Below are positions 23,305-60,200 of a DNA stretch of 64,000 nucleotides, piece after piece. Each line of letters opens with the position of its first letter. Positions within the stretch are counted from its first letter, which is position 1. Source of the DNA: Verrucomicrobiia bacterium (GTDB taxonomy: Bacteria; Verrucomicrobiota; Verrucomicrobiia; Palsa-1439); assembly GCA_050013395.1 (NCBI GenBank), contig JBEKFI010000006.1, positions 12,303 to 76,302 on the forward strand, in the 5' to 3' direction. Position numbers and translations under genes: made by a program. The notes beneath the pieces were generated by a model, which saw only the letters and a program-made list of their open reading frames with translations, made no database searches and was not told where the DNA came from.

Positions 23305-23344
23305 CAGTGTGCCTCGTTCGCCTTGTCCGTCATTTCGTTCATGG

Positions 23345-25724: not shown

Positions 25725-25741
25725 CCTTGGGCGACCGCACC

Positions 25742-26490: not shown

Positions 26491-26527
26491 GACTTGACTT
26501 GAATAACCCAAATTAGGATATTCGAGC

Positions 26528-27100: not shown

Positions 27101-27389
27101 GAAGAAACGCCGTCGCGCATCCACAAAATGAGCAAGCACGTTCAACGGTTTGTTGTAACCGCGCATCCCGCGGACACCGGCCATTTGCGTTAACTACACA
27201 CTTCCGAATATTTATGGCGCGACGGAGTGCCCATTCCAACGAGGTAGGGTTTTACCCCATCGACAGATTGAAGCAACTGTCAGACATTGACACAAGATTA
27301 GTGGCTCGCCGACGAGGGATCAGGCGTCCCTGAGGGCGGGACAACAACCGAGGCTGCCTTGGTGGTGGCGCATGAATGCGGGATACACT

Positions 27390-43058: not shown

Positions 43059-43345
43059 CGCTCAAACGCTCTGACGATCCGTTTATTTGTCCGAACTGCG
43101 GTGCAGATGTGCCGGCCGGAGCGAAGGCGTGTCCTGAGTGTGGATCGGATGAAAAGACCGGTTGGTCCGACAAAACCATCTACGACGGGACTGGCATCGA
43201 AGACCCGGACGAAGACGATTTCAACTACGAAGATTGGAGGCGGCGCGAGTCTGGCGGCGCACCCCACAAGAGCAGTATGGGCTGGCTCTGGTGGCTCGTG
43301 GCAGTGGTGGTGTTGGTGATGGTTGTGTGGTTGATGATTAGGTAG
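43055..43345 (+). CDS. Zinc-ribbon protein with C-terminal TM helix
   Basis: CPNCG...CPECG zinc-ribbon motif. C-terminal helix WLWWLVAVVVLVMVVWLMI. Confidence 0.4.
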   Translation: MTLKRSDDPFICPNCGADVPAGAKACPECGSDEKTGWSDKTIYDGTGIEDPDEDDFNYEDWRRRESGGAPHKSSMGWLWWLVAVVVLVMVVWLMIR

Positions 43346-43425
43346 GGGCGGACCGCCGGGCCGCCCGCAACTTGATGACAATCGGACACGGCGCGCCCGG
43401 CGGTCGCGCCCTACCCGAGATGTTG

Positions 43426-44460
43426 ATGATGAAAGCAGTGATCTTTCGAGATCATGGCGGAATCGAAAAGCTGGAATACGCGGACGTGCCCGAACCGAAA
43501 ATTTCCGCCGAAGAAGTGTCGGTGCGGGTGCGCGGGTGCGCGCTGAATCACCTCGACATCTGGGTGCGGCAGGGACTGGGGATTCCGATCGACATGCCGC
43601 ACATCGGCGGCAGCGACATTGCGGGCGAAGTGGCGGCGGTCGGAGCGAACGTGAAGAATCTGAAGCCGGGCCAGCGTGTGATCGTTTCTCCCGGCGTCAC
43701 CGACGGCGCGATTGATGAGTGGACGACGAGTGGTTGGGATTCGATGAGTCCGAGTTTCGACATCGTCGGAATGCGACGGCAGGGCGGTTACGCGGAGTTT
43801 GCGAAGGCGCATCACAGCGACGTGTTGCCCGTCAGCGACAAACTGAGTTTCGAGGAATGGGCGGCGATTCCGCTGGTGACTTTGACCGCGTGGCACATGT
43901 TGGTGACGCGGGCGCAATTGCGCGCCGGCGAAACCGTGCTGGTGCATGCGGCGGGGTCGGGGATCGGTGCGATGGCGATTCAAGTGGCGAAGCTCTGCGG
44001 CGCTTCATTAGTCATCACGACGGTCGGCTCGGACGAAAAGGCGGCGAAAGCCCTGGCGCTGGGCGCGGATGTGGTGATCAACTACCGCAAACAGGATTTT
44101 GCCGAGGAAGTTCTGAAACTGACAAACAAGCGCGGCGTGAACGTGATCTTCGAGCACATCGGCCCGGAAACATGGCCGAAGAACCTGTCGTGCCTAGCGC
44201 GCTTGGGTCGGATGGTCACGTGCGGCGCGACGAGCGGCCCGCAGGCAACAATGGAAATTCGCGGGTTGTACGTCCGTCAGCACACGATCATGGGCTGTTA
44301 CATGGGCGGTCGCAAAGAATTGCTGGAGGTATTGCGCCTCGTCGAAGCGGGCAAACTCCGTCCCGTCGTGGATCGCATGTTTCCGTTGAAGGAAGCCACC
44401 GCCGCCCAGCAGTACATGCTCGACCGAAAGAATTTCGGGAAGATCGTGCTGAAGGTGTAG
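43426..44460 (+). CDS. Zinc-type alcohol dehydrogenase / quinone oxidoreductase (MDR superfamily)
   Basis: GroES-like N-terminal domain. Rossmann motif VLVHAAGSGIGAMAIQVAK. Length about 345 aa. Confidence 0.8.
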   Translation: MMKAVIFRDHGGIEKLEYADVPEPKISAEEVSVRVRGCALNHLDIWVRQGLGIPIDMPHIGGSDIAGEVAAVGANVKNLKPGQRVIVSPGVTDGAIDEWTTSGWDSMSPSFDIVGMRRQGGYAEFAKAHHSDVLPVSDKLSFEEWAAIPLVTLTAWHMLVTRAQLRAGETVLVHAAGSGIGAMAIQVAKLCGASLVITTVGSDEKAAKALALGADVVINYRKQDFAEEVLKLTNKRGVNVIFEHIGPETWPKNLSCLARLGRMVTCGATSGPQATMEIRGLYVRQHTIMGCYMGGRKELLEVLRLVEAGKLRPVVDRMFPLKEATAAQQYMLDRKNFGKIVLKV

Positions 44461-44809
44461 CGTTCTGCTTGAGCTACGGCGATTGGCTTATTTCATTAAG
44501 GTTTTTCCTGAGCTTTTTCCGCCGGCTCATCGCTTTTTTGGCTTCGTCAAAATACGCGACATACCGAAGCCATGATATGGCTCTGCAGGAATTCGGTTTG
44601 TTTGCATAACTCGAGTTTATCCCGTGTAGAACCGCGTTGCGGTTCACTATTTCCCCAGAGGCAAATTTGTGTGCCTCGGTATCATTAAGCGGTACTTGCA
44701 GCAAGACGACCGTCAGAATATCTCTTTCGAGATGGACCGACGAGTCAACCCGCGCATCATCACGCTTGCGCGGGATGCAGCCACATTGTAGCCTCAAGGC
44801 TGTGATTCC

Positions 44810-45272
44810 ATGAAGCTGTACTTGGAAACGTCCGTGCCGAACTTCCTGTTTCACGATGACGCGCCCGAAAAGCAGGATGTCACCAAACGTTTCTTTCAGT
44901 GGTTGCGGCATTGCGACGATGAATTGTTCACGTCGGTCATCGTGGAGGCGGATAATCAGGCGCGCGCCGCTGCCGCTGCGGGCCAGTCTGCTGGAGGCAA
45001 TGGCGCGTTTGCCGGTGACAACCTTGGAATTGACTCCCGAAGCGGTCGGATTGGGAGAAGTGTACGTGCAGCGCGGGATTATCCCCCGGCGATTTCTCAA
45101 CGATGCGTTGCAGGTCGCCATCGCTGTTTGCCAGCAGATGGATGTTGTCGTAAGCTGGAACATGAAGCATCTGGTCAATGTGCGGAAAGTCGCGGCCATG
45201 AATCGTGTCAACTTGGAATACGGGTTGCCGCCGATCCGCATTCACACGCCCGAAGAGGTGATGCCGTTATGA
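44810..45272 (+). pseudogene. PIN-domain (VapC-like) protein gene interrupted by a frameshift
   Basis: N-terminus MKLYLETSVPNFLF in one frame. The C-terminal PIN signature NDALQVAIAVCQQMDVVVSWNMKHLVN is in another frame (ORFs 44810.. and 44856..). Confidence 0.45.
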
Positions 45273-45469
45273 AACGCGCGACCGAACCCAGGGCACTGAA
45301 AGAGTTGCACCGCATCCGGGAACGCATGGCCGGGGAGGCACGGAAAGTGGGCGTGGCGCGGTATTATCTGGCGCTGAACAAATCCTCTGAATGGCTTCGC
45401 GGAAAACCCCGCACGAGGCAGGCGGCGGCAGCCGTTTGCGAGAAACCAACTCGCAAATACGGCAGCTAG
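45269..45469 (+). CDS. Small hypothetical protein overlapping the PIN gene end (possible TA partner)
   Basis: ATGA overlap with the PIN ORF stop. 66-aa basic protein. Confidence 0.2.
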   Translation: MKRATEPRALKELHRIRERMAGEARKVGVARYYLALNKSSEWLRGKPRTRQAAAAVCEKPTRKYGS

Positions 45470-45627
45470 GAACACGCAAAAGAACCAGAGACTCTTCTCC
45501 CGCCAAGGCGGGATCAGAATGACAACCTTAAGTAGGGATTGGTTTACGGAGAAGCTCTGACCGCCTTGCCAAAAGGCTTGCGCGTGTACTGGCTCACTCC
45601 TAAAGTCGCGGTGGTTAAACTTGCGCG

Positions 45628-48600
45628 ATGAAACATTCTGACTTCGTCCATCTGCACCTGCACACCGAGTACAGCCTGCTCGATGGGGCGTGCCGCATTG
45701 ACGACGTGGTGGAGAAGGCGCACGCGGCAAAGATGCCGGCGGTGGCGATCACCGATCACGGCAACATGTACGGCGCGATCGATTTCTACAAGGCGGCGTC
45801 GGAACGCGGCATCAAACCGATCATCGGCTGCGAGGCGTACATCGCGCCGGGCAGCCGGCTCGACAAGAAATCCAGCAACGCGCGGGACGCGGCGTATCAT
45901 CTGGTGCTTCTGGCCAAGGACGAGGTCGGCTACAAGAATTTGATCAAGCTCATCACGGCGGCGCATCTCGAAGGGTTTTACTACAAACCGCGCATCGACA
46001 AGGAAATTCTGGCGCAACACGCGAAAGGGCTGATCGGGTTCACGTCCTGCCTCAAGGGCGAGGTGCCGAACAAGATCAAAGATGAGCAGATCGAACAGGC
46101 GAAGGCCGCGCTGGACGAGTACCGCCACATTTTCGAGCCGGGCGATTATTACGTCGAACTCCACAATCACGGGATTGAAGATCAACGAAAGGTCAATCGC
46201 GTGCTCATCGAATGGGCCAAGGAATTCAACCTGCCGCTTGTGGCGACCAACGACGTGCATTACATCGAGCGCAAGGATTGGGAGGCGCATGATTGCCTGA
46301 TTTGTTTACAGACGCAATCGCTGGTGGCCGACGAGAAGCGGATGCGGTACGCGGCCCAGCAGTTTTATCTGCGCACGCCGGAAGAGATGCACGAATTGTT
46401 CAAGGAGACACCGGAGGCGATCCGCAACACTCTGGCGGTCTCCGAGAAATGCAACGTGCTTCTGGAGTTCGGCAAACTTCGGTTTCCCGTTTATCAGCCG
46501 CCCGAGGGGTTGGGCCGCGAACAATACCTACGGCAGTTGTGCGAACAGGGATTGCGGGAACGCTATGGTATCGAATGGAAGAAACCGAAGTCCGAACAGG
46601 AAAAGGCCCTCATCGAACGGTTGGAATACGAACTGAAGGTGATCGAGAAGACCGGGTTCGCCAGTTATTTCCTGATCGTCTGGGACTTCGTACATTTCGC
46701 CAAGAGTAAAGCCATTCCGGTCGGACCGGGCCGCGGCAGCGCCGCAGGCAGTCTCGTGGCGTACCTGTTGCGCATCACCGACATCGATCCGTTGCGGTAC
46801 AACCTGCTATTCGAGCGGTTCCTCAATCCCGAGCGCGTGTCGCCGCCCGACATCGACATGGATTTCTGTTACAACCGGCGGCCCGAGGTCATCGATTACG
46901 TCCGCCACAAATACGGCAACGATCACGTGGCGCAGATCATCACGTTCGGCACGCTCGGCGCCAAGATGGTCGTGCGCGACGTGGGCCGCGTGCTGGGATT
47001 GAGCTACGGCGAATGCGACCGCATCGCGAAGATGATCCCACCCGACATCGGGATGACACTGGCGAAAGCGCTGGACATCAGTCCCGAACTCAAGAACGCC
47101 TATCAAAACGAAGACATGGTGCGGCGCGTGATCGGCTACGGGTTCACGCTCGAAGGTCTCGCGCGCAACGCCAGCACGCACGCGGCGGGCGTGGTCATCG
47201 GTGCCGAACCATTGATCAATGTCGTGCCCCTGACCACCGGGACGAACTCGAATGAAGTCGTCACGCAGTACTCGATGAACCCGCTTGGCGATCTCGGATT
47301 GCTGAAGATGGACTTCCTCGGGCTGAAAACGCTGACCGTCATCAAGGACGCGCTCGATCTCGTCGAGCAAACGACGGGCAAGCGCATCGACATCGACAAG
47401 ATTCCGCTCGACGACGCGAAGGCGTTCGACCTGCTCAACAAGGCCAATACTATCGGCGTGTTCCAGCTTGAATCACAGGGGATGCGCGATCTGTGCCGGC
47501 GCATTGGGGTGGACTCGATTGACGTGATCATCGCGCTGATCGCGCTGTTTCGTCCCGGGCCGATGAACATGCTCGACGATTACGTGAACCGCAAACACGC
47601 GAAGACGAAGGTCGAGTACGATCATCCGCTGCTGGAGCCGATCCTGAAGGAGACATTCGGCGTGTTCGTGTATCAGGAGCAGGTCATGCAGGCGGCCAAC
47701 GTGCTGGCGGGATACTCGCTCGGCGGCGCCGATATTCTGCGACGCGCAATGGGGAAGAAAAAGCCCGCCGAGATGGAGAAGCAGCGCGAGGTCTTCATCA
47801 AGGGTTGTCACGAGAAAAACAAAATCCCGCGCGGCAAAGCAGAGAGAATCTTCGAGACACTCGCCAAGTTTGCCGGGTACGGCTTCAACAAGTCGCACAG
47901 CGCGGCGTACGCGGTCGTCGCCTACCAGACCGCGTGGCTGAAGGCGAATTACCCGGTCGAGTTCATGGCGGCGTTGCTATCCAACGAACTGGCCAACACC
48001 GACAAAATCCGGCTTTTCATCAACGAATGCCGCCGCATGGGCATTGAAGTGTTGCCGCCCGACGTGAACCAGAGCGGCGTGCGGTTTACGGTGCATCTTC
48101 GCAGTGTGGGAGCGGCGTCCCCGCCGCGACCGGTGGCCGGGCCTGAGACAATCGCGGCGAGGACGCCGCTCCCACAAGACAAGGAGCCTACTAAAGCAAA
48201 ACATCATCAAGGCGCGCGACGCAGGCGGAAAACTCAAATCGTTCAGCGACTTCTGCGAGCGCGTGGACCTGCGCATGGTCAATCGCAAGGTGCTGGAAAG
48301 CTTGGTGAAGTGCGGCACGTTCGATTCGCTCGATCCGCAGCGCGCGCGGCTGTATGCGGAGATTGACTACCAGATGAATCGCGCCAGCAGCCTCCAACGC
48401 GACCGCGAACGCGGACAGGCAGCGCTGTTCGACGTCGAGCCGGTCAACGCGCGCAAACAGGCGACCGGTAAACCGCCCGAGGTCGAGTGGTCGCAAAGCG
48501 AGATGCTGGCGTTTGAGAAGGAACTGCTGGGCTTTTACGTCACAGGACACCCGTTGTCGCAATACGCGGACATCCTTCGTCGCTACGAGTTGGCGTCGTC

Positions 48601-49189
48601 GGCCCGGCTGGCCCAGTTGCAGGACGGGCAGACGACACGCATCGGCGGCATCGTCAGCAAACTGCAGCCGAAGATGACGAAACAGGGAAAACCGATGGCC
48701 ATCGTGACGTTGGAGGATTTGGATGGTTCAGTGGAAGTCCTGATCTTTCCCGAGGCGTACGCGAAGTGCTCGATCCATTTGCGCGCGGATGCTGCGATCT
48801 TTGTCTGCGGGACAGTCAATCTGCGCGAGGACAAGCCGAAGATTTTCGCCGACCATATCATTCCGCTCGACGAAGTCCCGAAGCGGTTCACCAAGGCCGT
48901 CCACATCCGCCTGCCCGCCGAGACGACCGAAGAAGCGGCGCTGACGCGCGTGCGGGAGGCGTTGCAAGCGCATCAAGGCAATGTGCCGGTGATGTTTTGC
49001 TTCATGTACGACGATGGCAAGCTGGTGTTCATCGAGACCCACGACAACTTTTTCGTTACGCCGTCAGAGGCGCTGGTGCAGGAACTGGAACGGATCCTCG
49101 GCGAAGACACCGTCTGGCTGAAGGTGGACACCGAGAAGATGGCCAACGGAAATGGCTCGCGTCAGGAGAGTCGGTTCGCCAAGGAGTGA
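45628..49189 (+). CDS. dnaE: DNA polymerase III alpha subunit, reading frame interrupted near 48100 by a palindromic element
   Basis: PHP domain start MKHSDFVHLHLHTEYSLLDG, polymerase core, YGFNKSHSAAY, an OB-fold region and a C-terminal domain. The N-terminal 912-aa ORF (45628..48366) and the C-terminal 361-aa ORF (48104..49189) are in different frames. Confidence 0.85.
48106..48175. repeat. RPE-like palindromic element (23-bp inverted termini) inside dnaE
   Basis: gtgggagcggcgtccccgccgcg-(24 nt)-cgcggcgaggacgccgctcccac. It occupies the position where the conserved HhH (GIGAIKGVG-type) motif is expected. Length 70 bp, so it shifts the frame by +1. Confidence 0.65.
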
Positions 49190-49228
49190 TGTCCTGCGCT
49201 TCGCTCGGGATGACAACCAGAGCAGTTG

Positions 49229-49783
49229 TCACTTGGGAATGATCAGCTTCTGACCGATTTTGATCTCGTTTGGATTGGAGATGTTGTTGGATTTCTTTAA
49301 ATCCTCAACCGATACGCCGTAGGCTTTGGCGATCGTGGTCAGAGTTTCGCCCTTGGCAACAACATGCTCCTTCCCTGCGCTGGTGGTGGCGCTTGCTGAT
49401 GTCGAGCCACCGGCCTTTTCGCCTGCTCGGGGCGGGTTCAAGGCGGCAATTTCCTTGGCGAGTTGATCGATGATCGCCTGTTTGTCCTTTTGTCGGGCGG
49501 CATCCAGCTCATCAACGCGTGCTTGGAGAGCTTGGAGATCGCTGGTGGACGCGCCGCCAGCAGAGCGGCGTAACGCCTGCAAATCCTCTTGGATTTTGGC
49601 GATGTCCTTTTGCATTTGCTGCTGTTTGAACTGCAGGTCTTCCACGTCGGCGCGCAAATGGCTCAGTTTCTCATCCAAGATATTCAGGCTCTCGGTGACA
49701 GTTTGCTGGGCCGCGAAGGGAGTCCCGATGGCTGACAAAATCACAGAAGCGACAAAAATGTGTGGGAGGATTCTCAATTTCAT
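49229..49783 (-). CDS. LysM-domain protein with signal peptide and coiled-coil region
   Basis: C-terminal LysM HVVAKGETLTTIAKAYGVSVEDLKKSNNISNPNEIKIGQKLIIP. Signal peptide at the N-terminus. Confidence 0.7.
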   Translation of the reverse strand: MKLRILPHIFVASVILSAIGTPFAAQQTVTESLNILDEKLSHLRADVEDLQFKQQQMQKDIAKIQEDLQALRRSAGGASTSDLQALQARVDELDAARQKDKQAIIDQLAKEIAALNPPRAGEKAGGSTSASATTSAGKEHVVAKGETLTTIAKAYGVSVEDLKKSNNISNPNEIKIGQKLIIPK

Positions 49784-50212
49784 ACGGCCAGTTTAGAAAG
49801 GGGCTTCAGCGGATGCAAGCTCGCTGTCGCATTTGGAGAAACGTTATAGAGCCGAGCGACGCACCCCGAAGGCATGTGAGCCTCGCGATTTGATTGATCG
49901 CGCCGTCGAAGTCTGCAAATACCGGAGAGAACCCATCCGATTAACGCAGGACGTACTGGATTTGGCTTGGGATGGGTATTTCGGCGCGTCTGTAAGTGGC
50001 TAACCCGCATATTTCACACGCCCGTGTGAAATATGCGCCCGCAGGGCCGACCCCGACACACAGAGTGTGTCGGCCTCGGGAGCGCCGCGCCCCCACGCGC
50101 GGCGCTCCCGAGGTGGACACTTCACGACTACCTACTGGCAGGTGTGAAATATCCAAGCTAAGCATTGGCAAAATTGACGGACGCGACTTAACCTGCTATA
50201 TAAGGAACACAA

Positions 50213-50272
50213 ATGAACGACAAAGGCCAACACAGCACAGCAGATCAGGCTTGGTTCTGGTTTTATTTTAGC
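50213..50272 (+). CDS. Attenuator leader peptide MNDKGQHSTADQAWFWFYF (6 consecutive aromatic codons)
   Basis: RBS taaggaacacaaATG. The 19-codon ORF ends in W-F-W-F-Y-F-stop. Followed by alternative hairpins and an intrinsic terminator immediately upstream of the DAHP synthase RBS. Confidence 0.5.
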
Positions 50273-50318
50273 CACGATCTGCGGGCGCTGTGTTGACGAC
50301 ACGGAAGCACACGTCAAA

Positions 50319-50349
50319 CCGTCCCGCAGACGCGGGGCGGTTTTTTTAT
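50319..50349 (+). terminator. Intrinsic terminator of the aromatic attenuator (ccgtcccgc-aga-cgcggggcgg + TTTTTTTAT)
   Basis: 9-bp GC stem followed by a 7-T run, 44 nt upstream of the DAHP synthase ATG. Confidence 0.6.
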
Positions 50350-50392
50350 TGCCCGTGACCGTCCCGCCGAGGCGGGGACGAAGGAGCGAACG

Positions 50393-51418
50393 ATGATCAT
50401 CATAATGAAAACAGGGAGAACGGGGCAGGAGATTCAACAGGTGGTGGATGCAGTAAAACAATTCGGTTACGAGCCTAAACTGATCCGCGGCGTCGAGCGC
50501 ACTGTCGTTGCCTGCGTCGGCGACGAGCGCAACCATCACACGCTGGAATCTCTTATCGTGTTGCCACAGGTCGAAAGCGTGATGCCGGTCCAGAAGCGGT
50601 ACAAGCTGGTCAGTCGCGAATACCAGCCTCAGGACAGCATTCTCGACGTCTGCGGCCTCAAGATCGGCGGTGACACTTTTCACGTCATCGCCGGGCCGTG
50701 TTCGGTCGAAACCCAGGAGCAGACTTTGGAAACCGCGAAAGCGGTGAAGTCGTACGGCGGCACACTGTTTCGCGGCGGCGCATTCAAACCGCGCACCTCG
50801 CCGTACGACTTCCAAGGTCTGGGCCGCGACGGACTGGAAATGTTGAGGCAGGCCCGCGCCGCCACCGGGCTACCTATTGTCACCGAAGTCATGTCGCCGC
50901 AGGATGTGGACATGGTAGCCGAGATTGCCGACGTGCTGCAGATCGGCGCGCGCAACGCGCAGAACGTTCCGCTGCTCGCCGCCGCCGCCGCTTCCGGCAA
51001 AACGATCCTCCTCAAGCGCGGCATGTCGAGTTTCATCGACGAATGGCTGCTCGCCGCTGAATACATCTGCGTGCAGGGTAACAGCAAGGTCATCCTCTGC
51101 GAACGCGGCATCCGCACCTTCGAGCACGCCTGCCGCAACACGCTCGACATCAGCGCCGTCGCCGTGGCGAAAAAGGAAACACATCTGCCCGTGTTCGTCG
51201 ATCCGAGTCACGCGGCGGGCCGCTACGACATGGTCATTCCGCTGGCCCGCGCCGCCGTGGCCGCGGGAGCGGACGGCTTGCTCGTCGAAGTGCATCCCAA
51301 TCCTGCCGTCGCCCTCAGCGACGGCGGCCAACAACTCAAACCGAAACAGTTCGGTCAACTGATGTCCGAAATCCGTCCGCTGGTTGAGGTGATGGGCAAA
51401 AAACTAGGCGGAGAGTGA
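50393..51418 (+). CDS. 3-deoxy-7-phosphoheptulonate (DAHP) synthase, class I-beta with N-terminal regulatory domain
   Basis: KDO8PS/DAHPS I-beta core (GPCSVE, KPRTSPY, GARN, DPSH) preceded by an ACT/FL-like extension of about 80 aa. Confidence 0.8.
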   Translation: MIIIMKTGRTGQEIQQVVDAVKQFGYEPKLIRGVERTVVACVGDERNHHTLESLIVLPQVESVMPVQKRYKLVSREYQPQDSILDVCGLKIGGDTFHVIAGPCSVETQEQTLETAKAVKSYGGTLFRGGAFKPRTSPYDFQGLGRDGLEMLRQARAATGLPIVTEVMSPQDVDMVAEIADVLQIGARNAQNVPLLAAAAASGKTILLKRGMSSFIDEWLLAAEYICVQGNSKVILCERGIRTFEHACRNTLDISAVAVAKKETHLPVFVDPSHAAGRYDMVIPLARAAVAAGADGLLVEVHPNPAVALSDGGQQLKPKQFGQLMSEIRPLVEVMGKKLGGE

Positions 51419-51486
51419 ACAAACAACCCCACGCTGAACGTGATTCTTAATTCAATGCTACATATGTAGTGTAAGATTCAGACGCC

Positions 51487-52275
51487 CTATTTCCCTTTCG
51501 GGAGCGATGAACTGAGCGCGCTCAGGACGCGGCGTCGCGACTGCCATGCTTTTACGCCGAGGTAGTCGTGGGGCAATAAAGATCGAGGCAAGAGCGGGTC
51601 CAGCGAAAAGGCGTGTTGCCACGCGATGCGTTCCGCACGCAGCCACTGGCTGGCGCGAGCAAATCCCAAGCGACGGTCTGGCAGGCTCAACGCTTGCCTT
51701 CCGAAACCGGCCAAGTAGGCCGCGTACCGCTTGTTGATTTCGTCGAAGTCCCATGCGCCGCGAACGACGGCCTCATTCGAATACCCCGCACCGCATTCCG
51801 CATCCATGATCGTCAGTGATTCCACATCGTCTCGGTAGTCGTTGAGCGCCTCAGCCACCTCCGTCAGTGGATCCGTGTGGATCCAGACGCTATTCTGCAA
51901 ATACCCGAAGCCGTTTTGACGCAGCCACCGCGGCAATTGCTGACGCAGCGACTGTCGCCCCGTTGGCAAATCAAACAAAACCATCCTCCATTTCCCATCC
52001 CAATCACGCGCCCAACGCGCTTCTGGATCGCGTCCTCCCAAGGCTGCGATGCGACCCAACTCCGTCATATGATACACCCATCCTGCCGCCTGACGTTCGC
52101 GCAGTAGCAGCCCGCGTCGTTCCAGATAGTAAAGCTGATTATGGAACCGACGGCGATGCTCCCAAGCCTCGTAAGGCTCGAACAAATTCCGAAATGTTGG
52201 GTGAGATAAGCGACCCACACCCCAAAACAACACGAGCAACCAATCCTCTAACATCGGCGTAATTTTCTCTTTCAT
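51487..52275 (-). CDS. PaaX-family transcriptional regulator
   Basis: DGKWRMVLFDLP..RQQLPRWLRQNGFGYLQNSVWIHTD and LLPRSLLPHDYLGVKAWQ align with the PaaX C-terminal domain (DGKW...LP; LLPEELLP). Confidence 0.55.
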   Translation of the reverse strand: MKEKITPMLEDWLLVLFWGVGRLSHPTFRNLFEPYEAWEHRRRFHNQLYYLERRGLLLRERQAAGWVYHMTELGRIAALGGRDPEARWARDWDGKWRMVLFDLPTGRQSLRQQLPRWLRQNGFGYLQNSVWIHTDPLTEVAEALNDYRDDVESLTIMDAECGAGYSNEAVVRGAWDFDEINKRYAAYLAGFGRQALSLPDRRLGFARASQWLRAERIAWQHAFSLDPLLPRSLLPHDYLGVKAWQSRRRVLSALSSSLPKGK

Positions 52276-52300
52276 TACCTTTTCCTTGTGTTCCGAAATT

Positions 52301-52320
52301 TATGCTACATCTGTAGCATA
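52301..52320. promoter_or_regulatory. Palindromic candidate operator TATGCTACA-TC-TGTAGCATA upstream of the PaaX-like gene; related site at 51455..51470
   Basis: 9-bp inverted arms located 26 bp upstream of the regulator start. A second imperfect copy (ATGCTACATATGTAGTG) lies at the other end of the inserted segment. Confidence 0.4.
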
Positions 52321-52423
52321 ATTTTCAGAAGATTGGTCAAGGAGCAGTTTTGTCAGGCTGCGCGGTGGGTTGGGCGAGCGGTTAGTTCGAGTTGGTCCCA
52401 AAGGTGAATTGTCATCGCTGCGC

Positions 52424-52615
52424 CTACTCGCGGATGGCCGCCAGCATTGCAGCATCGAAAGCCTTGTCAGAGGTGTTAGCGCCCTTCTTTATTTCCTCCG
52501 CGATGAACTGCTGGCGCTTCTGGCTCAGTTCGTTGATTTGCTTTTGTGGGTCGGCGCGTTCCTTCGCTTTCTGGTCGAGGTACATTTTGCGCTGTTCCAG
52601 CGTCGTGTTTTGCAT
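52424..52615 (-). CDS. Small hypothetical protein (63 aa, charged/helical)
   Basis: ORF only; lower GC. Confidence 0.2.
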   Translation of the reverse strand: MQNTTLEQRKMYLDQKAKERADPQKQINELSQKRQQFIAEEIKKGANTSDKAFDAAMLAAIRE

Positions 52616-52624
52616 CTCGGCCGG

Positions 52625-52788
52625 CAGTGGCGGCGGGAGCGGACGGCTTGCTCGTCGAAGTGCATCCCAACCCTGCAGTGGCGCTGAGCGACGGCGGCCA
52701 ACAACTCAAACCGAAACAGTTCGGTCAGCTAATGTCGGAAATCCGTCCCTTGGTGGAAGTGATGGGTAAACAACTCGGCGGAGCGTAA
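52625..52788 (+). repeat. Diverged duplicate of the DAHP synthase 3' end (last ~55 codons + stop)
   Basis: About 88% nt and 95% aa identity to 51255..51418. Encodes AGADGLLVEVHPNPAVALSDGGQQLKPKQFGQLMSEIRPLVEVMGKQLGGA*. Confidence 0.8.
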
Positions 52789-53283
52789 CGGTACCGTGGA
52801 GCGATGAGCGTAGAGCGAAGGGTGAAGGTGCAAGTCACCTGGGTGAATCACGCCGGCGAGAGCGCCACCAGCGCCCTCGTCCAGATCGTCGTGCCGTGGC
52901 GACGGCAAGTTACTGTAGCGGCGGTCTACGACCGCCGAAGGGAGAGGCTAGCGAAGCTACTGGGCGACAGCCGCCTGCTGAGCGGCTGTCGGCTCGGTTG
53001 AGTTGCTAGGTCTTGGTTGAATCAACCCGTTCTGATTCGGCGGCGTTTGTGGCACTTGCCGTTTTAGAAACTCCAGAACATCCTTTCGTTTCGTCCATAC
53101 CTCATTCGCCAATGTCTCTGCCTTGTCGCTCACGTAGAAGACGTTAACTTTGGTCTCGATATAGTAGACCGGGGCGTGTCATCAACATGATTGTGTCAGG
53201 TGGTGCTTCCGTGGAGGGCGCAACATAGAGGTAGCGCCGATTTCACGCTAACCCTGAAGCAACAGGGCGCCGATCCGTTGCCC

Positions 53284-54396
53284 TCACACACGTGACACAC
53301 GCCAGAGGAGCCAGAGGCCGAGCATCTCGAAGCCGAAGCTGGGGAGCCACATGATCGCTTCGGGGTAGAGGTACGGGCGATTACGCAGGACGTTGGCCAG
53401 CACCATCGTGAAGTAGTAAATCAGTGCCAGACCGAGGCTGATCGCAACGCCGATTGAAGTTTCGCGCCGGCTCGTCTTCACGCCCAGCGGAATGCCGATC
53501 AGCGTGAAGGCGACGCATGCGACGGCCATCGCCACGCGTTGGTGGGCTTCCATTAATGCGGCGGCAGGATAGATTCCTTGGCCGCGTAGACTTTCGCTCT
53601 GCTCGATCAGTTCCGAGAACAATAAATCGGATAATCGCCGCGACGTCCTCGCCTGCCGGAACGCGTTCCCCAAATCCAGTTCGACCGGATAACGCAGCGC
53701 CGTGGTGCCGGGGCGGATTTTACGGATGTTAGTCGGATCGTTGGGATCGCGCAGGTCGCCGCGCACGTTGTACAAGTCCAGCAAGAGCTTCTTCTCCTGC
53801 GGTTCACCTTTCACCAGCCCTTTTTGCGCCCGCAGGCTGGAGACGACGTTGCCGTTGCTATCCAACGCGTACAACGTCACGTCCTCGATGATGTTCTGCT
53901 TCTTGCGTCCCACGTAGATCACGTAGCCGGGAAAATCCTTGAGGTAAGCGCCTTCCTCGATGAGCGCCATCGGTTGCTTCGTGCCCATCTCCAGGAACAG
54001 GGTGCGAAACTTGAACCGACACTCCGGCGCGAGCGTCGTGTTCATGTAGAAGCAAATTGCGCCCACCAGCGCGGAAAGCAGGATGACGGGCGCAGCAACG
54101 CGTCCCAAGCCGATCCCGCTGGCGCGCATTGCGGTGATTTCGTTGTCGGCGCTCATCCGGCCAAACACGAGCAGCGCCGTCGTCAGCATCGCCATCGGCA
54201 GCGAAAAACTCAGCACGGTCGGCAGCAGCAACAACAAGAACCACCCGACAATCCCCGGTCCCACCTGCCGATTGATCAGCAACTCGCTGAGTTCCTTCAG
54301 CACCCGCGCCAGCAACAGGACAAACGTGAACACACCCACGCTGAAAAACAGGGTGATGACCGTCTGGCGTGTGATATACTTCGGCAGAATTTTCAT
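53284..54396 (-). CDS. LptF/LptG-family (YjgP/YjgQ) LPS export permease
   Basis: Six TM helices with a periplasmic beta-jellyroll insert between TM3 and TM4, matching family topology and length (370 aa). Confidence 0.75.
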   Translation of the reverse strand: MKILPKYITRQTVITLFFSVGVFTFVLLLARVLKELSELLINRQVGPGIVGWFLLLLLPTVLSFSLPMAMLTTALLVFGRMSADNEITAMRASGIGLGRVAAPVILLSALVGAICFYMNTTLAPECRFKFRTLFLEMGTKQPMALIEEGAYLKDFPGYVIYVGRKKQNIIEDVTLYALDSNGNVVSSLRAQKGLVKGEPQEKKLLLDLYNVRGDLRDPNDPTNIRKIRPGTTALRYPVELDLGNAFRQARTSRRLSDLLFSELIEQSESLRGQGIYPAAALMEAHQRVAMAVACVAFTLIGIPLGVKTSRRETSIGVAISLGLALIYYFTMVLANVLRNRPYLYPEAIMWLPSFGFEMLGLWLLWRVSRV

Positions 54397-54401
54397 CGAC
54401 A

Positions 54402-57251
54402 GTGCGTACGACTAACAATATTCCCGCCGAAACGCCACGCAAAAGCTCGCTCAGTCGTTTCGCCGAGGCGCTTGCCAAATCTTGCCGTGCCCATCTGCTC
54501 CGCGAAAAATGGTTGTTGGCCCCTTCGTATCGCGTCGGGCAACAATGGTTGGATGTCGTCGCGCGCAACGGCCAACCTGTCGTCAATGGCCGCCTCAAAA
54601 CCCTTCGGTCCCTCGCAGTCGAACTCGCCGGGCCGTTACTGGCGCGCGATGGCCTGCAACCGCTCTCGCCGCTCGGTCGACTCGTTGTGGTGCGACAGCT
54701 TCTCGAACAACACCGCGAACACCATTCGGTCGAGAGCTACCTCGGATCGCTGCCAGCCAGCCTTGCTTTTGTCCAACAAATGGCCGCCACGCTGCGCGAC
54801 CTGCGGTTGGCTGGCTTGGGGCCGGACGATCTTGAGCGCGGCCAATACGAAGCCACGCAGAAGGGGCGCGAACTCATCGGCTTGCTCCGCGCCTATCAGG
54901 ACGCCTTGCGGCAGCGCCGACTCGCGGACGAAGCCGACGTGTTACGCCGCGCCGCAGCGGGCGACTTCAACGTTGACGCTCTCGTGCTCGTGCCGGAAGA
55001 CCTTGAACTGGCAGCACTGGAACGTGCGCTGCTCGGCGCGATTCCTCGCCAACAGCGGATCGACTTGCCGGTTGACCCGCCATCGGATCGTCGCGTGGAC
55101 GAGGTGTTTCGCGCCGTCGGCGAAATCAACGAGGTGCGCGAGGTTTTGCGGCGTTGTCTCGCCAACGGCTGGTCGCTCGATCACGTTGAACTGCTTTCCA
55201 CGGATCCCGACCTTTACGGCAGTCTCGTGTACGAAGTGACCGCCGCGCTGCGCCGCGAAGACGCGGTCACGTTTGCAGACGGCATCCCTGTGCGCTACAC
55301 GCGACCGGCGCGCGCGCTGAATGCGTGGCTTGCGTGGCGCCGGGCCGAATTCCCGCAGTCGTCGCTGGTGGCGATGGTGCAGGACGGGTTACTCGCTCTA
55401 CCGGAGAATCTGTTGCCGGCGCGCTTGGCCGGTGTCCTGCGCAATGTGCCGATCGGTTTTGGACGCGAGCGTTATCTGTCCAAGCTGGACGAGTTCATGG
55501 GCGGTCTCATGCGCCGGCTCACCGACGCGGATGAGGAACGTCGCCCAAGCGTGGAGCGTCGTCTCGAAACCGCGCGGGCGCTGCGTCCCCTGGTCGAACG
55601 TTTGTTGCAGACCACGTGCGACTCCTTGCTGCCTTCCGCCGCCGCTTTCCTGCGCGACCATGCGCGCTGCGCAACAGAATTGGACAACAATGCCCGGCAG
55701 GTGCTTCTCGAACGAATCGAGGAAATGGCGGCGTTGCTGGAAGCGGACGGCACTGCCTCGGTGAACGAGGCGGAGTGGCTGGAGATGCTGCTGCGCGAAT
55801 CGCGCGTGCTCGGTCTTGGCCCGCGTCCCGGTTGCCTGCACGTAGCGAGCATCTGGTCGGGCGGCCATTCAGGAAGACCCCACACGTTCATCGTGGGCCT
55901 GGACAGCGGGCGTTTTCCTCCGGCGGGCGGGCAAGACCCCGTGTTGCTGGACGGAGAACGCCAGTCACTTTCCGAGCATCTCGCCACTTCCGGCCAGCGA
56001 CGCGAGCAGGTTGTGCAACAGTTCGCGCGATTGCTCGCGCGTTTGCGCGGAAGCGTCACACTGAGTTATTCCAGCCGCGACTTGGCTGACGACGCCGAAA
56101 CGTTCCCAAGCAGCGCCAGCCTCAAGCAACTCGCTGACGAAGAGGAGCTGCCGCCCGCCTGCGCGTTCGCGCCGACACGTGCCGAGGGCAGTCTGGATGA
56201 AACCGAGTGGTGGCTTTGGCGTTTGTGCGCCGCCGCGCCGGTCCGCGAGCCGATGACGCTGGTGGGCGAATGTTTCCCGCGGCTGGGCCGTGGACTGCGC
56301 GCCGCGCAGCAACGCGCCAGCGAGGTGTTCACCGCGTATGACGGGTTCGTGCCGGAGGCCGGGCCGGACCTCGACCCGGCACGCTCGCCCGACCGCCTGT
56401 TCTCGCCGCGTCGGCTGGAAACGCTCGGCGCGTGTCCGCTTCGGTACTTTTACCAATACGCCCTGGGCTTGGAGTTGCCGGACGAGTTGGAGCTTGATCC
56501 GCATCGCTGGCTGCAGCCGGCGGAGTTCGGCCAGTTGCTGCACGAGGTGTTTCACCGGTTCCTGCGCGATGGCGGGCGGTTGGCGGACATCTTGCAGGAG
56601 CGCATTGAGCATTACGGGGAAAAGTTCCCGCCGCCGAACGAGGGCGTATTCCGTCGTGATTGTCGGCGGCTCGAACGCGCCGGGCGCATCTTTCTGGCGG
56701 AGGAGGAAGAACTGCGGCAGACATGCCGGCCGATCGAGTTCGAGAAGGAAATCAGCGGCGTGCCGGTGCGCTTGCCGGACGGCGGAACGATCCACGTGCG
56801 CGGGCGGATCGACCGCGTGGACGAGATGGCCGGCAGGCTCGCGTTGTGGGACTACAAGACCGGCAACCCATCGCGCTTCGCCAAGACTTCGAAGGATCCG
56901 TTTGCGCAAGGCCGCATTCTGCAACACGCGCTCTACATCGCGCTGGCGGAGGCGCACTACGGTCGGCCGGTCGCGCAGTTCGGCTATTTCTTTCCGACAG
57001 AAAAAGGCAGCGGAGAGCGAATCTTTTTCACACCGGCGAAACTGGCTGATGCCCCAAACGTTCTCGTCCGGCTCAGGGAACTGATCGCCCGCGGCGCGTT
57101 CCCGGCGACAAACCAGATGGATGACTGCGCGTATTGCGATTACCGGCCGATCTGCCGCGACATCGAAACCATCACCGCTCAGAGCGCCGGTAAGCTGGCG
57201 TCACCGGCCAACAACGTCTTGCAACCGTTTCGGGAGTTGCGCCCGCAATGA
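54402..57251 (+). CDS. AddB-like PD-(D/E)xK nuclease-family subunit of a helicase-nuclease complex (no intact Walker A)
   Basis: C-terminal RecB-type nuclease with a Cys cluster (C..C..C; DYKTG). No GKT/S motif found. Lies upstream of the addA-like gene, as in addBA operons. Confidence 0.6.
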   Translation: MRTTNNIPAETPRKSSLSRFAEALAKSCRAHLLREKWLLAPSYRVGQQWLDVVARNGQPVVNGRLKTLRSLAVELAGPLLARDGLQPLSPLGRLVVVRQLLEQHREHHSVESYLGSLPASLAFVQQMAATLRDLRLAGLGPDDLERGQYEATQKGRELIGLLRAYQDALRQRRLADEADVLRRAAAGDFNVDALVLVPEDLELAALERALLGAIPRQQRIDLPVDPPSDRRVDEVFRAVGEINEVREVLRRCLANGWSLDHVELLSTDPDLYGSLVYEVTAALRREDAVTFADGIPVRYTRPARALNAWLAWRRAEFPQSSLVAMVQDGLLALPENLLPARLAGVLRNVPIGFGRERYLSKLDEFMGGLMRRLTDADEERRPSVERRLETARALRPLVERLLQTTCDSLLPSAAAFLRDHARCATELDNNARQVLLERIEEMAALLEADGTASVNEAEWLEMLLRESRVLGLGPRPGCLHVASIWSGGHSGRPHTFIVGLDSGRFPPAGGQDPVLLDGERQSLSEHLATSGQRREQVVQQFARLLARLRGSVTLSYSSRDLADDAETFPSSASLKQLADEEELPPACAFAPTRAEGSLDETEWWLWRLCAAAPVREPMTLVGECFPRLGRGLRAAQQRASEVFTAYDGFVPEAGPDLDPARSPDRLFSPRRLETLGACPLRYFYQYALGLELPDELELDPHRWLQPAEFGQLLHEVFHRFLRDGGRLADILQERIEHYGEKFPPPNEGVFRRDCRRLERAGRIFLAEEEELRQTCRPIEFEKEISGVPVRLPDGGTIHVRGRIDRVDEMAGRLALWDYKTGNPSRFAKTSKDPFAQGRILQHALYIALAEAHYGRPVAQFGYFFPTEKGSGERIFFTPAKLADAPNVLVRLRELIARGAFPATNQMDDCAYCDYRPICRDIETITAQSAGKLASPANNVLQPFRELRPQ

Positions 57252-60200
57252 ACCCTCCGGATCACCGGCAGCGTGAACTGATTGTGAAGCGGCTCGATGC
57301 GACCATGATCGTCGAAGCCGCCGCCGGCACCGGCAAAACGCGTTCGATGACCGACCGGATGGTGGCGCTGCTGGCCGGCGGCAAGTGCCGCATCGAAACA
57401 CTGGTCGCCGTCACCTTCACGCGCAAGGCCGCTGCCGAGTTACAGAACCGTTTTCAATTCGCTCTCGAAGACGCGGCGCGCCACGCGAGCGGCAAACCTG
57501 CCGAACGTCTGCGCCACGCCCGCAACCACGTCGAGCTTTGTTTCATCGGCACGGTGCACTCGTTCTGCGCACGGCTGTTGCGCGAGCGTCCCGTGGAAGC
57601 GGGCGTTGACCCGGCCTTCGAGGAACTCGACGAGGAGCGCGACGCGCGGCTGCGCCAGCAGGCGTGGGAGACGTTCGGCAACGAGTTGTTTGCAGCCGAT
57701 GATCCCGTGCTGGATGAGTGCGAGGAACTCGGGTTGACACTGGCGGAGTTGCGCGAGGCCTTCCTGCAATTCGCCGATTACCCGGACGTGGACGAGTGGC
57801 CCGCGCCTGCCGTGCCCGCGCCGGCGCTGAAGCCGGCCATGCAGGCGTTGTGCGAGTACACGGCGCACATGGCGCGTGTGCTGCCGACCTTGCCGGCAGA
57901 GGGAGGCACGGATGAGTTGATCGGACTGTTTCGGCGGGTGTTGCGCATGATGCGGTCGCGCGATCTCGAACGCCACGCCGATGTGGCAGAAGTGTTCGAG
58001 CAGTTCAAGCCTGAGCGGAAATGCACGCAGAAGAATTGGCCGGGCGGCAAAGAGCAGGCGTTGCGCGAACACGAGCGGTGGAATGGATTTGCCACGGAGG
58101 TGGCCGCGCCGTTTGTCGCTGCGTGGCGGGCGCACCGCTATCCGACCGTGTTGCGCGTGCTGGAGCGGGCGTGCGCGGTCTATGACCGGCAACGCCAGGT
58201 TGCGCACGGGTTGAACTTTCAGGATATGCTGATGCGCGCCGCCGCGTTGTTGCGCGACCGGCCGGAAATCCGCCGGTATTTCCGCCTGCGGTTCACGCAC
58301 GTGTTGGTGGACGAGTTTCAGGACACCGATCCGGTGCAGGCCGAGGTGCTGTTGCTGCTCACGGCCGACGACCCGCGCGAGCGCGATTGGCGCAAATGCC
58401 GGCCCGTGCCGGGCGCGTTGTTTGTCGTCGGCGACCCGAAACAATCCATCTACCGGTTTCGCCGTGCCGACATCGTGACCTACAATACCGTCAAAGAAAT
58501 CATCACCAGCACCGGCGGCTTGTGCGTCACGCTCACGGCCAACTTCCGCTCTGCCGCCCCGGTGGTGGACTGGGTGAACGCGGTATTTCAGTCGGGAGGG
58601 TTCTTCCCGGCCACAGCGAATGATTTCTCGCCGTCGTACGCGCCGTTTTTGGTGGGCCGCACGGAGGACGCCGCGGCGCCCGGTGTTTTCCGGATTGCCA
58701 TCCCTGGCAACCTGAGCAATCAGGACGAGATCGCGGCGTACGAAGCCGACTTGCTAGCGCGGCAAATCCGCCACGCGGTCGACGGCGATGCGCGCGCGCC
58801 CGGCGACTTCCTCATTGTGACGCGCCAGAAGAAACGGCTCAGCGTGTACGCCGCGGCGCTGCAACGGCTAGGCATTCCGCACGAAGTGACCGGCGGCAGT
58901 TCGCTTAATGAAGTACGCGAACTCAGTATGCTAAACACGGCGTTGCGCGCCGCGCTCGAACCCGACAACACGGTCGCTGTGGTGGCCGCCTTGCGCAGCG
59001 AGTTGTTCGGGTTCAGCGACCAACAGTTGTATGCGTTCCGGCGCGCGGGTGGGCGGTTCGATTTCCGTGGCACGACGCCGGAAACGCCTGCGGCTGAGTT
59101 GTTCGACGACGCGTTTGCCTGCCTGTCCCGGTACGCCGACTGGCTGGCCAATCTCGCGCCGATCATCGCCATCGAACGCATCACCGCGGATCTCGGTCTC
59201 GCGCCGCTCGCTGCCGCTGCGCCCGGCGGCGATGTGCAGGCCGGCAGCCTCGGCAAAGCCATCGAGTTGCTCCGGGCTGCGCAGGCGGATTTGCCCACTG
59301 CCGCGGATTTTGTGGCGCAATTGGGCCGGTTGATCGAGCAAGCCGAGCAATACGACGGCGTGCCCGCCACCGCGCCCATGCCGTCGGTTGTCCGGGTGAT
59401 GAACCTGCACAAGGTCAAAGGACTCCAGGCGCCCGTCGTGTTTCTGGCCGATCCATCGGGCGCGTCGGAGCACGCCGTCAGGCTGCAAGTGGATCGCCGT
59501 CAGGACCGCGTCACAGGCTACCTCGCGTTGCACGGCGAACGCAACATCTGGGGGCAGGCCTCGCTGTTGGCGCATCCGCCGGACTGGGAAACGCTGGCGT
59601 CGCGGGAACAGCAGTTTCAGGCCGCCGAGAATCACCGGCTGCTCTATGTCGCCGCCACGCGCGCGCGCGACCGACTCATCGTGACATTGCGCGGCAAGCG
59701 CGCCGATTCCAACCCGTGGCAGCCGTTGGCCGGGCAACTTGCCGACGCACCGGAGTTGCCGGACCCCGGCCCGCAACAACCGCCGGGCGTCGAGACGGAG
59801 ACCGTAACGCAGGCCGATGTCGCTGCTGCGCTCGATCAGATTCGCGCCCGCTGGCAAACCGTGCTGGCGCCTACTTACAGCGCCCGCGCCGCCAAGCAAA
59901 TCAGTTTTCCCAGCGCGCCGCTGGCCACGCGCGACGAAGCGAGCGGCGTGCGTTGGGGCGGTGTGATCCATGCGTTGTTGCAGGCGGCGATGAGCGCGCC
60001 GAAAACCGACTGGCAGGCGCTCGCCACGGCGTTGCTTCAAGCTGCGGACTTGGACGTCACGCTGATCGAAGAAGCCGTGGAAATCGTTCGGCATGTCATG
60101 GAGTCAACGCTCTGGCAGCGCGCCTCCAGCAGCCGGCAACGCTCCACTGAATTGCCGTTCGTCGTGCTTGACGCCGGCGACGGCGCGTTGGTGCGCGGCG

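Follow-up and report, generated by a model that had tools for sequence, protein, structure and literature searches.

An in-frame REPIN and a separate 50-nt gap in the dnaE gene of a Verrucomicrobiia genome assembly

Introduction

REPs of the GTAG superfamily, which are associated with RAYT transposases, carry a 5' GT[AG]G head outside the stem (PMC3116915, PMC3337134, PMC3733652). REPINs are inverted doublets of such units that have short variable spacers and form one long hairpin. REPs are typically extragenic, with intragenic copies a documented minority (PMC3733652), and one study describes REPIN-RAYT systems as mostly vertically inherited (bioRxiv 10.1101/2022.05.22.493013). Rickettsia palindromic elements (RPE), in turn, belong to the CGTC superfamily.

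REP dimers have previously been reported in frame within verrucomicrobial replication and repair genes (PMC3733652). Di Nocera et al. (2013) described in-frame REPs in dnaE2 of Opitutus terrae (Oter_4053, residues 934-971), most GTAG-20 units of which carry a GTGG tag, and an in-frame insert in dnaE of Rickettsia conorii (RC1211, residues 853-861). They also reported REP dimers coding for 20-30 or more residues in replication and repair genes, the top load being in a verrucomicrobium (PMC3733652). These inserts were presumed to lie in tolerant loops.

Every genome has at least one C-family polymerase, and almost all members of this family have the (HhH)2 domain (PMC3919608). A frameshifted dnaE is usually a sequencing or assembly error; split dnaE records have been treated as probable errors of this kind and rejoined (PMC3919608). 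Here, we describe a dnaE gene with a changed reading frame next to a palindromic element in the genome of an uncultured Verrucomicrobiia bacterium. The window refers throughout to the whole 64-kb stretch of DNA that was analysed.

Results

The dnaE reading frame changes within the helix-hairpin-helix domain

The ORF list and Pfam (PF02811, PF07733, PF17657) place the upstream part of dnaE in frame 1 of the forward strand (positions 45628 to 48198). This part comprises the PHP domain, Pol3 core, fingers, and the start of the HhH domain, followed by an element-coded loop. From the start at 45628, frame 1 reads ...PPDVNQSGVRFTV, with V822 at 48091-48093, and aligns without gaps to two intact genes (on contigs L001 and L004) up to 48197-48199; past 48198 the ORF is out of register and stops at 48364-48366. 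DnaE homology picks up again in frame 2 at 48200 (NIIKARDAGGKLKSF...). This downstream part (48200 to 49189, forward strand, stop at 49187-49189) contains the rest of the HhH domain, the OB fold, and the C-terminal domain. The change from frame 1 to frame 2 agrees with the initial annotation.

The split yields ORFs of 912 aa and 361 aa, the latter with a mechanical start at GTG 48104, within the element; both frames are stop-free across 48104 to 48363. The downstream piece has been deposited separately (361 aa, MGD0649843.1, "OB-fold nucleic acid binding domain-containing protein"; NCBI, PGAP), and the PGAP-annotated MAG has MGD0649810.1, MGD0649843.1, and MGD0649845.1 together on a single contig of 83,765 bp. 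In the downstream ORF, Pfam detects the OB fold and a match to HHH_6 that covers only profile positions 39-90 of 90, indicating that no frame encodes the beginning of the HhH domain. The DnaE1-type layout, i.e., PHP, Pol3 core, (HhH)2, OB, and CTD in one polypeptide, does not occur in the window; it is present in the ~99.94%-identical allele of contig L004 (1203 aa).

The element at the break has the architecture of a REPIN

The element (48106 to 48175, unstranded) consists of two 24-nt REPs, inverted, with their GTGG heads outward and a 22-nt spacer between them. Each follows the architecture GTGG-GA-GCGGCG-TCCY-CGCCGC-GA. As inverted-repeat arms, 48105-48129 and 48152-48176 span 25 nt each and are 96% complementary across the 22-nt spacer, and the RNA fold of the element has a computed energy of -63.6 kcal/mol (z = -4.4). 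The 24-nt arm GTGGGAGCGGCGTCCCCGCCGCGA occurs four times in the 64-kb window, as two doublets, compared to zero times in 100 shuffles; this bears out the earlier observation of a palindrome at the break that shares its termini with an element at 15388. Judged by this architecture, the element is a REPIN, i.e., an inverted doublet of a GTGG-tagged REP. It has the head outside the stem that defines the GTAG superfamily, the same GA extra bases, 6-bp stem, 4-nt loop, and GA-plus-next-base 3' tail as GTAG-1/2 (PMC3733652), and the GTGG tag seen in O. terrae. With its GTGG head and no CGTC tag, it has in common with RPE the in-frame insertion behaviour alone. In contrast to typical REPs, both copies in the window are intragenic, in frame, and translated.

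The dnaE REPIN lies within a loop insert (HLRSVGAASPPRPVAGPETIAARTPLPQDKEPTKA, 48094 to 48198, forward strand) of 35 in-frame codons that takes the place of a 4-codon loop, GDGG. Protein and nucleotide alignments to P0001/L001, L004, and P0002/L002 delimit this insert, which measures 105 nt compared to 12 nt in element-free orthologues, a net in-frame gain of 93 nt or 31 codons. It falls between residues 824 and 831 of E. coli alpha. An AF2 model built with an alignment predicts, at low confidence, a coil that links two beta-strands, and its flanks exceed pLDDT 90; this model was used in place of a single-sequence AlphaFold prediction of the P0001 fragment, which was unusable (pLDDT 43). As in the cases of Di Nocera et al., the insertion is in frame in a replication gene; here, however, it is the replicative dnaE1 of an uncultured Verrucomicrobiia bacterium that hosts the insert, and the REP sequence is different.

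There are signs that the same loop received other repeats. The sequence GTAGGCTCC (48183 to 48191, reverse strand; forward strand GGAGCCTAC) is a putative head of an older GTAG-type REP. It is probably a remnant, to which we infer homology, such that the present REPIN would be nested in that REP. Relatives carry other palindromic inserts in this dnaE loop, each terminating with CCYAC and 7 further nt ahead of ATYCG (IRF), as in L128 (...GCTTGCCCTACGAAAGCC followed by ATC). Judged by these inserts, the dnaE loop has been a recurrent insertion site for different palindromic repeats among members of a verrucomicrobial clade.

Close relatives encode intact DnaE with the element in frame

One near-identical relative is an independent ENA contig (ERZ27250059 k141_271794, L004), which shares ~99.94% identity with the window and codes for an intact DnaE of 1203 aa in which the element is in frame. 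When aligned to window positions 10184-29172 and 43279-57418, this contig differed by 20 SNPs, and the sole indel in the ~33 kb comparison was a 50-nt gap in the window, the 50 nt being retained in L004. Given the 20 SNPs, the two are not the same consensus, and the deletion may be a genuine strain difference. From 48198 to 57418 the window and L004 are 100% identical, leaving the downstream part of dnaE without a further lesion; its 330 codons match the intact allele and are open to the normal stop, showing no pseudogene decay.

The other relatives gave the same picture. An exact search with the left junction recovered L001 and three more JGI contigs, all intact, and all cluster members with this REPIN at the dnaE site were likewise intact (P0245, on 16 contigs; P0246, on 15 contigs; P0247, P0251, and P0256). 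The initial annotation had proposed a check of orthologues for the element, and this found the same element in frame in the DnaE of intact relatives: at least six proteins (P0001, P0244-P0246, P0251, P0256) and five contigs, with the HhH segment directly 3' of the element. The intact DnaE proteins of element-bearing relatives are 1203-1206 aa long. P0050, from another assembly of the clade, contains compensated frameshifts that are typical of assembly error.

A 50-nt gap downstream of the element accounts for the lost residues

Nucleotide alignments place the deletion junction at 48197 to 48200 (forward strand), where 50 nt of L004 (AATTCGGTTCGGGCTCGCCGCGATCAAGAACGTCGGCGAGATCGCGGTGG) are absent. 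The gap begins 21-23 nt 3' of the REPIN, its placement being ambiguous by a 2-nt AA microhomology, and no direct repeats longer than 2 nt flank it. The absent nucleotides code for 17 residues, IRFGLAAIKNVGEIAVE; without them, the HhH hairpin is gone and the reading frame moves by +1, splitting the gene. The initial annotation had stated that the HhH residues are not encoded. Their absence from all frames holds, but they number 17 and are lost through the gap 3' of the element.

We also considered how such a gap could arise. On its own, the deleted segment gave no significant DNA fold (z = -1.7); simple excision of these 50 nt as a hairpin is therefore unsupported. The right arm of the REPIN (ATCGCGGCGAG) is perfectly complementary over 11 nt to the deleted segment (CTCGCCGCGAT), a pairing through which a real, hairpin-associated deletion could plausibly have arisen in the cell. 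With only the 2-nt AA shared at the junction, a de Bruijn assembler would need spanning reads to create it, which argues that the deletion was present in at least some of the molecules or reads.

The same REP occurs elsewhere in the window and in other genomes

The second REPIN copy (15388 to 15446, unstranded; coded as VGAASPPRPGQNRGGDAAPT) has perfect 24-nt arms and an 11-nt spacer. It is in frame inside a 401-aa glycosyltransferase-family gene (14811-16016, reverse strand). Most homologues of this gene are 382-383 aa long and lack the insert, and its relatives contain many other inserts at the same loop. Among the matches listed, more than 115 stretches of other genomes contain the same 24-mer, usually in doublet form, and it lies on dozens of contigs in one Thiohalocapsa MAG. 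There were 78 inverted REP doublets in the loci fetched, and doublet spacers ranged from 10 to 37 nt in many genomes. The stems of copies in other genomes covary (GCGGCG/CGCCGC, GCGCCG/CGGCGC, GCGACC/GGTCGC). The exact 24-mer is common to several phyla, unlike the mostly vertical REPIN-RAYT inheritance described in the study cited above.

RAYT genes flanked by the same 24-mer were present in three other genomes (L027, L064, L069). These genes were found by a HUH/Tyr motif screen. They scored 133-135 bits on NCBIfam NF047646 (REP-associated tyrosine transposase; cut-off 80 bits), and Pfam PF01797 also matched. All-against-all clustering of the ORFs near REP matches yielded no dominant transposase.

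Discussion

We propose that dnaE in this Verrucomicrobiia lineage normally carries an in-frame REPIN, which would be a substrate of RAYT tyrosine transposases. The REPIN would sit in a beta-hairpin loop just before the first helix-hairpin-helix of (HhH)2 and be translated as a flexible loop of ~35 residues. Separately, the 50-bp stretch coding for the 17 HhH residues, 21-23 nt past the REPIN, is missing from the MAG contig, with loss of the HhH hairpin and a +1 shift. This lesion is private to the assembly and is either an assembly, consensus, or library artefact (or a minority-variant path taken in assembly), or a very recent deletion in a few cells. We assign this reading, i.e., an in-frame REPIN plus a separate private 50-bp lesion that is an artefact or very recent, a probability of about 0.88. 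Within it, an artefact or non-representative variant is the probable origin of the lesion, and a real recent deletion is a possible but less likely one. We infer that the lesion is not representative of the living population. Comparison with intact alleles indicates that the split dnaE is not a recoding site, a stable split gene, or a gene damaged by insertion of the element.

This reading agrees with what is known of fragmented dnaE records, in which the gene is split by a frameshift and close relatives are intact (PMC3919608). The lesion described here differs from the 1-2-nt indels of those records in being a 50-nt gap that removes a conserved motif. The initial annotation had considered an error inside a hard-to-sequence hairpin; assembly error is still the leading explanation, but it would lie in the 50-nt gap after the hairpin rather than in the repeat.

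It is improbable that the deletion is real and fixed, such that dnaE would be a fresh pseudogene and replication would depend on another C-family polymerase gene. The lesion is part of the sequence as deposited, with the 3' ORF annotated separately by PGAP; there is no repeat at the junction to mislead an assembler; and the SNPs relative to the intact contig may denote a different strain. However, the ~99.94%-identical strain is intact at this locus, the 3' part contains zero further changes, and there is no second dnaE within the 64-kb window. In each fetched contig of the clade, the sole dnaE is the syntenic one. Loss of the sole replicative polymerase would be lethal. A related proposal is that the deletion is real in living cells, the intragenic REPIN rendering an essential gene fragile through mispairing of the right arm with the complementary CTCGCCGCGAT in the HhH-coding DNA, and that cells survive on a truncated or two-piece Pol III alpha without the first HhH hairpin or on another polymerase. 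We regard this as very improbable.

There is still less reason to favour a functional two-piece DnaE, in which an N-terminal core would act with a separately initiated OB/CTD fragment. The GTG at 48104 does open a frame-2 ORF from within the REPIN, and DnaE is split via inteins in cyanobacteria (PMC3919608), where an essential gene is likewise interrupted. Here, however, intein domains are absent, Pfam giving polymerase domains alone, and the conserved HhH hairpin is lost. The arrangement also occurs in one assembly only, and its pieces are nowhere separately conserved.

Recoding, which the initial annotation had listed as an option, would require the ribosome to shift by +1, or to bypass part of the message, in the vicinity of the REPIN hairpin. 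The mRNA does have a very stable hairpin (-63.6 kcal/mol) just upstream of the frame change and the stop-free overlap of frames 1 and 2 extends from 48104 to 48363, yet no frameshift restores the 17 missing HhH residues. The near-identical strain needs no recoding: its allele and all relatives are uninterrupted, and no recoding signal is conserved. In contrast to the programmed frameshifting of prfB and dnaX, no slippery site can be recognised at ACT AAA GCA AAA CAT. Rfam searches of 47000-49500 returned no frameshift element; the only matches were of the hairpin to a plant miRNA model (35 bits compared to a gathering score of 268), which we treated as meaningless. Whereas 50 extra nucleotides are skipped in the T4 gene 60 bypass, 50 coding nucleotides are absent here, the same number being coincidental. 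We consider recoding extremely unlikely.

Equally unlikely, and refuted by the alignments, is the original proposal that insertion of the 70-bp element (1 mod 3), which does lie at the break, itself disrupted dnaE and displaced or replaced the HhH segment, since the full insert block of 105 nt compared to 12 nt is read through in intact DnaE and the same element stands in frame, directly followed by HhH, in the at least six intact proteins and five contigs described above.

For annotation, the split dnaE of this MAG, including the half deposited as MGD0649843.1, is best regarded as a probable lesion of the assembly, or else a private deletion, and provides no evidence for recoding, a split polymerase, or a missing replicase. 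By its sequence, the locus is a clear example of a replicative polymerase with a translated RAYT-type REPIN within it, and it extends the findings of Di Nocera et al. on Opitutus terrae and Rickettsia. The deletion, if real, would illustrate the cost of hairpin repeats inside essential genes.

The break in dnaE and an adjacent 50-nt gap

The dnaE gene starts at 45628 and is encoded in frame 1 up to ...PPDVNQSGVRFTV, continuous with the peptide encoded by the palindromic element (HLRSVGAASPPRPVAGPETIAARTPLPQDKEPTKA, 48094–48198). Beyond 48198, frame 1 encodes residues unrelated to DnaE and reaches a stop codon at 48364–48366; from 48200 to the normal stop at 49189, DnaE similarity is found in frame 2 instead (starting NIIKARDAGGKLKSFSDFCERVD...). 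In Pfam searches, the upstream ORF matched PHP, Pol3, and finger domains, and the downstream ORF matched an OB fold plus HHH_6, the latter at profile positions 39–90 of 90 only. The inverted repeat at the break has 25-nt arms (48105–48129 and 48152–48176) that are 96% complementary and separated by a 22-nt spacer. The two frames, the inverted repeat, and the partial HHH_6 match bear out the initial annotation, which placed a palindrome at a broken dnaE frame. No second dnaE was found within the 64-kb window.

The closest database homolog, P0001 (97% identical, 1206 aa), contains the same element-encoded peptide in frame, followed directly by IRFGLAAVKNVGEIAVENIIK. In a nucleotide alignment with its locus (L001), the window is gap-free to 48197, after which exactly 50 nt are missing. 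An independent MEGAHIT contig (ENA ERZ27250059 k141_271794; loci L004, L005, L125, and L129), whose neighboring proteins are identical to those of the window, differs by 18 SNPs across 10184–29172, 2 SNPs across 43279–48199, and none across 48198–57418. The sole indel in this ~33 kb comparison is the 50 nt AATTCGGTTCGGGCTCGCCGCGATCAAGAACGTCGGCGAGATCGCGGTGG, present in the ENA contig and missing from the window; with these nucleotides, the ENA allele encodes an unbroken 1203-aa DnaE (...EPTKA-IRFGLAAIKNVGEIAVE-NIIKARD...). The +1 frame shift and the loss of the helix-hairpin-helix (HhH) hairpin are thus both due to this gap. The gap sits 21–23 nt downstream of the palindrome, its position is ambiguous by a 2-nt AA microhomology only, and no direct repeat longer than 2 nt flanks it. 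Palindrome length, which had been proposed as the cause of the shift, does not explain it: relative to element-free orthologs (P0002, locus L002; RFTV-GDGG-IRFGL), 105 nt replace 12 nt, in frame. Disruption of dnaE by the element itself is ruled out by intact alleles carrying the element.

Assignment of the palindrome to REPINs

In the arms (GTGG-GA-GCGGCG-TCCY-CGCCGC-GA), a 5' GT[AG]G head and two extra bases precede a 6-bp stem with a 4-nt loop, after which comes a short tail. The layout matches the published architecture of GTAG-1/2 REPs, and most units of Opitutus terrae GTAG-20 have GTGG heads (PMC3733652). The 24-nt arm has four matches in the window, compared to none in 100 shuffles, and is shared with the element at 15388, a perfect doublet of the same arm (15388–15446).

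Searching species-representative genomes for the 24-mer GTGGGAGCGGCGTCCYCGCCGCGA returned at least 115 stretches (L010–L124); the matches listed include Thiohalocapsa, Halothiobacillus, Methyloversatilis, Pseudoxanthomonas, Desulfosarcina, Ectothiorhodospiraceae, Verrucomicrobiota, and others, with cultured isolates among them. The listed loci hold at least 276 REP copies (up to four mismatches), at least 78 convergent doublets among them with spacers mostly of 10–37 nt, and the inner stems of the copies covary. In three of the listed genomes, the same doublets flank a small gene; all three genes match Pfam Y1_Tnp, and the two that were scored against the REP-associated tyrosine transposase (RAYT) family NCBIfam NF047646 reach 133–135 bits (cut-off 80). 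Given the architecture, the doublets, and the RAYT genes flanked in other genomes, the element is classified by sequence as a REPIN as defined by Bertels and Rainey (PMC3116915, PMC3337134). Among the matches listed, the exact 24-nt REP spans Gamma-, Beta-, and Deltaproteobacteria and Verrucomicrobiota, with single matches in Armatimonadota and Aminicenantes MAGs.

Origin of the gap

Orthologs of close relatives, which the initial annotation had proposed to check for the element, have the HhH intact: within the 90%-identity protein cluster, no member covering the region lacks the segment, and seven contain this REPIN, in full or shortened, two of them seen on 16 and 15 contigs. An in-frame REPIN is the usual state of dnaE in this lineage. 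When JGI metagenome contigs were searched for exact matches to the left junction, three more turned up, each with the 50 nt present. In public data, the 361-aa downstream ORF is matched exactly only by NCBI MGD0649843.1, labeled 'OB-fold nucleic acid binding domain-containing protein' (MAG, Verrucomicrobiia bacterium), on an 83,765-bp contig that also holds MGD0649810.1 and MGD0649845.1, identical to two other window proteins. The lesion is private to this source MAG, and the downstream part shows no decay, since its 330 codons are identical to the intact allele. The deposited sequence does contain a broken frame, and the private 50-nt gap accounts for it.

We assign a probability of about 65% to the gap being an artifact or minority variant. 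According to Timinskas et al., each bacterial genome has at least one C-family polymerase and (HhH)2 domains are near-universal; where close relatives were intact, these authors regarded dnaE genes fragmented by frameshifts as probable sequencing or assembly errors (PMC3919608). A homolog from another assembly of this clade, P0050 (ENA, 1175 aa, 95% identical), contains two long out-of-frame stretches, each returning to frame, because of which it lacks a Pfam HHH_6 match; such compensated frameshifts point to error-prone assembly among these data. A real recent deletion is less likely: no junction repeat could mislead a k-mer assembler, which favors a deletion in at least some molecules, but an essential gene is affected, the lesion is confined to one assembly and shows no accompanying decay, and a ~99.94%-identical strain has an intact locus. 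At its inner end, the REPIN right arm (ATCGCGGCGAG, 48152–48162) pairs perfectly, in a fold without the left arm, with CTCGCCGCGAT, which lies inside the deleted segment (L004 3769–3779) in native HhH-coding DNA (GLAAI codons). This complementarity could be relevant to target choice or deletion, and template switching during replication or library amplification would be a plausible route. The deleted segment's own hairpin was not significant by DNA folding. Native CTCGCCGCGAT is, in addition, similar to the left arm at its inner end (CCCGCCGCGA). That the gap is anything functional is highly improbable. Recoding was rejected (17 residues are beyond its reach, there is no conservation, and no Rfam signal), as was an intein split of DnaE (no intein domains in the Pfam search).

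Insertion hot spots

Relatives contain other palindromic inserts at exactly the same DnaE loop position: GTAGCGCAAGCTTCCAGCTTGCG...GCAAGCTGGAAGCTTGCCCTAC in L128, a decayed palindrome in L127, two hairpins in L126 (one being GTGGGACAGGCGTCTCGCCTGTC on the minus strand), and different inserts again in P0243 and P0250, despite their membership of the same 90%-identity cluster. Every one of these inserts ends in CCYAC plus 7 nt, after which the IRF codons follow. Because CCTAC also occurs outside the REPIN in the window (48187–48191), the REPIN may be nested in an older REP. This pattern points to a single ancestral insertion followed by repeated replacement or nesting, or else to site-specific targeting. 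Between the window and L001, the REPIN stretch (~48050–48195, ~146 nt) shows 100% identity, where ~9 differences are expected as dnaE overall is only ~94% identical; this hints at homogenization, recent exchange, or constraint on the element.

The gene at 14811–16016 (minus strand) encodes a conserved glycosyltransferase-family protein of 401 aa, whose homologs are mostly 382–383 aa; the REPIN at 15388–15446 lies in frame in one of its loops. In relatives, this loop (LDWW...RDVFTTVMNW) holds many different palindrome-like inserts, e.g., EGRASARP..GLDGARPS, NPPLAPPRRG..., DGAPGGRALP, and ..AEMLRQAQHD, which makes it a second hot spot for in-frame insertions.

In an alignment with solved Pol III alpha sequences, the DnaE insert maps between E. 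coli residues 824 and 831 (Taq 882/886), immediately N-terminal to the IxxGLxAIKGVGE hairpin. An AlphaFold model of P0001 residues 701–1000 (34 aligned homologs; mean pLDDT 79) places short strands at fragment residues 121–124 and 156–159 around a coil (pLDDT ~53), with flanking helices at pLDDT 90–97, consistent with a tolerated surface loop.

The window also contains a ~170-nt direct repeat, 88% identical (51251–51420 and 52620–52789), which is the 3' end of the DAHP synthase gene and brackets a ~1.2-kb segment with a PaaX-like gene (51487–52275, minus strand) and a small ORF. Because lptF/G directly follows DAHP synthase in L001, the segment resembles an insertion by which the 3' end was duplicated or restored. 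REPIN-like inverted repeats of other families occur at 43341–43415, 50067–50120, and 61713–61802; one is GTAG-headed (GGTAGGGGCGGACCGCCGGGC / GCCCGGCGGTCGCGCCCTACC), upstream of an alcohol dehydrogenase-like gene.

Intragenic GTAG REPs were reported by Di Nocera et al. (2013) to be most numerous in the verrucomicrobium O. terrae; over half are dimers encoding 20–30 residues, and a large number are located in genes for replication and repair, including O. terrae dnaE2 (Oter_4053, residues 934–971) and R. conorii dnaE (RC1211, residues 853–861) (PMC3733652). The dnaE REPIN is a further case of this known phenomenon, and the value of the present findings lies mainly in annotation quality and in the observation of REPIN hot spots.
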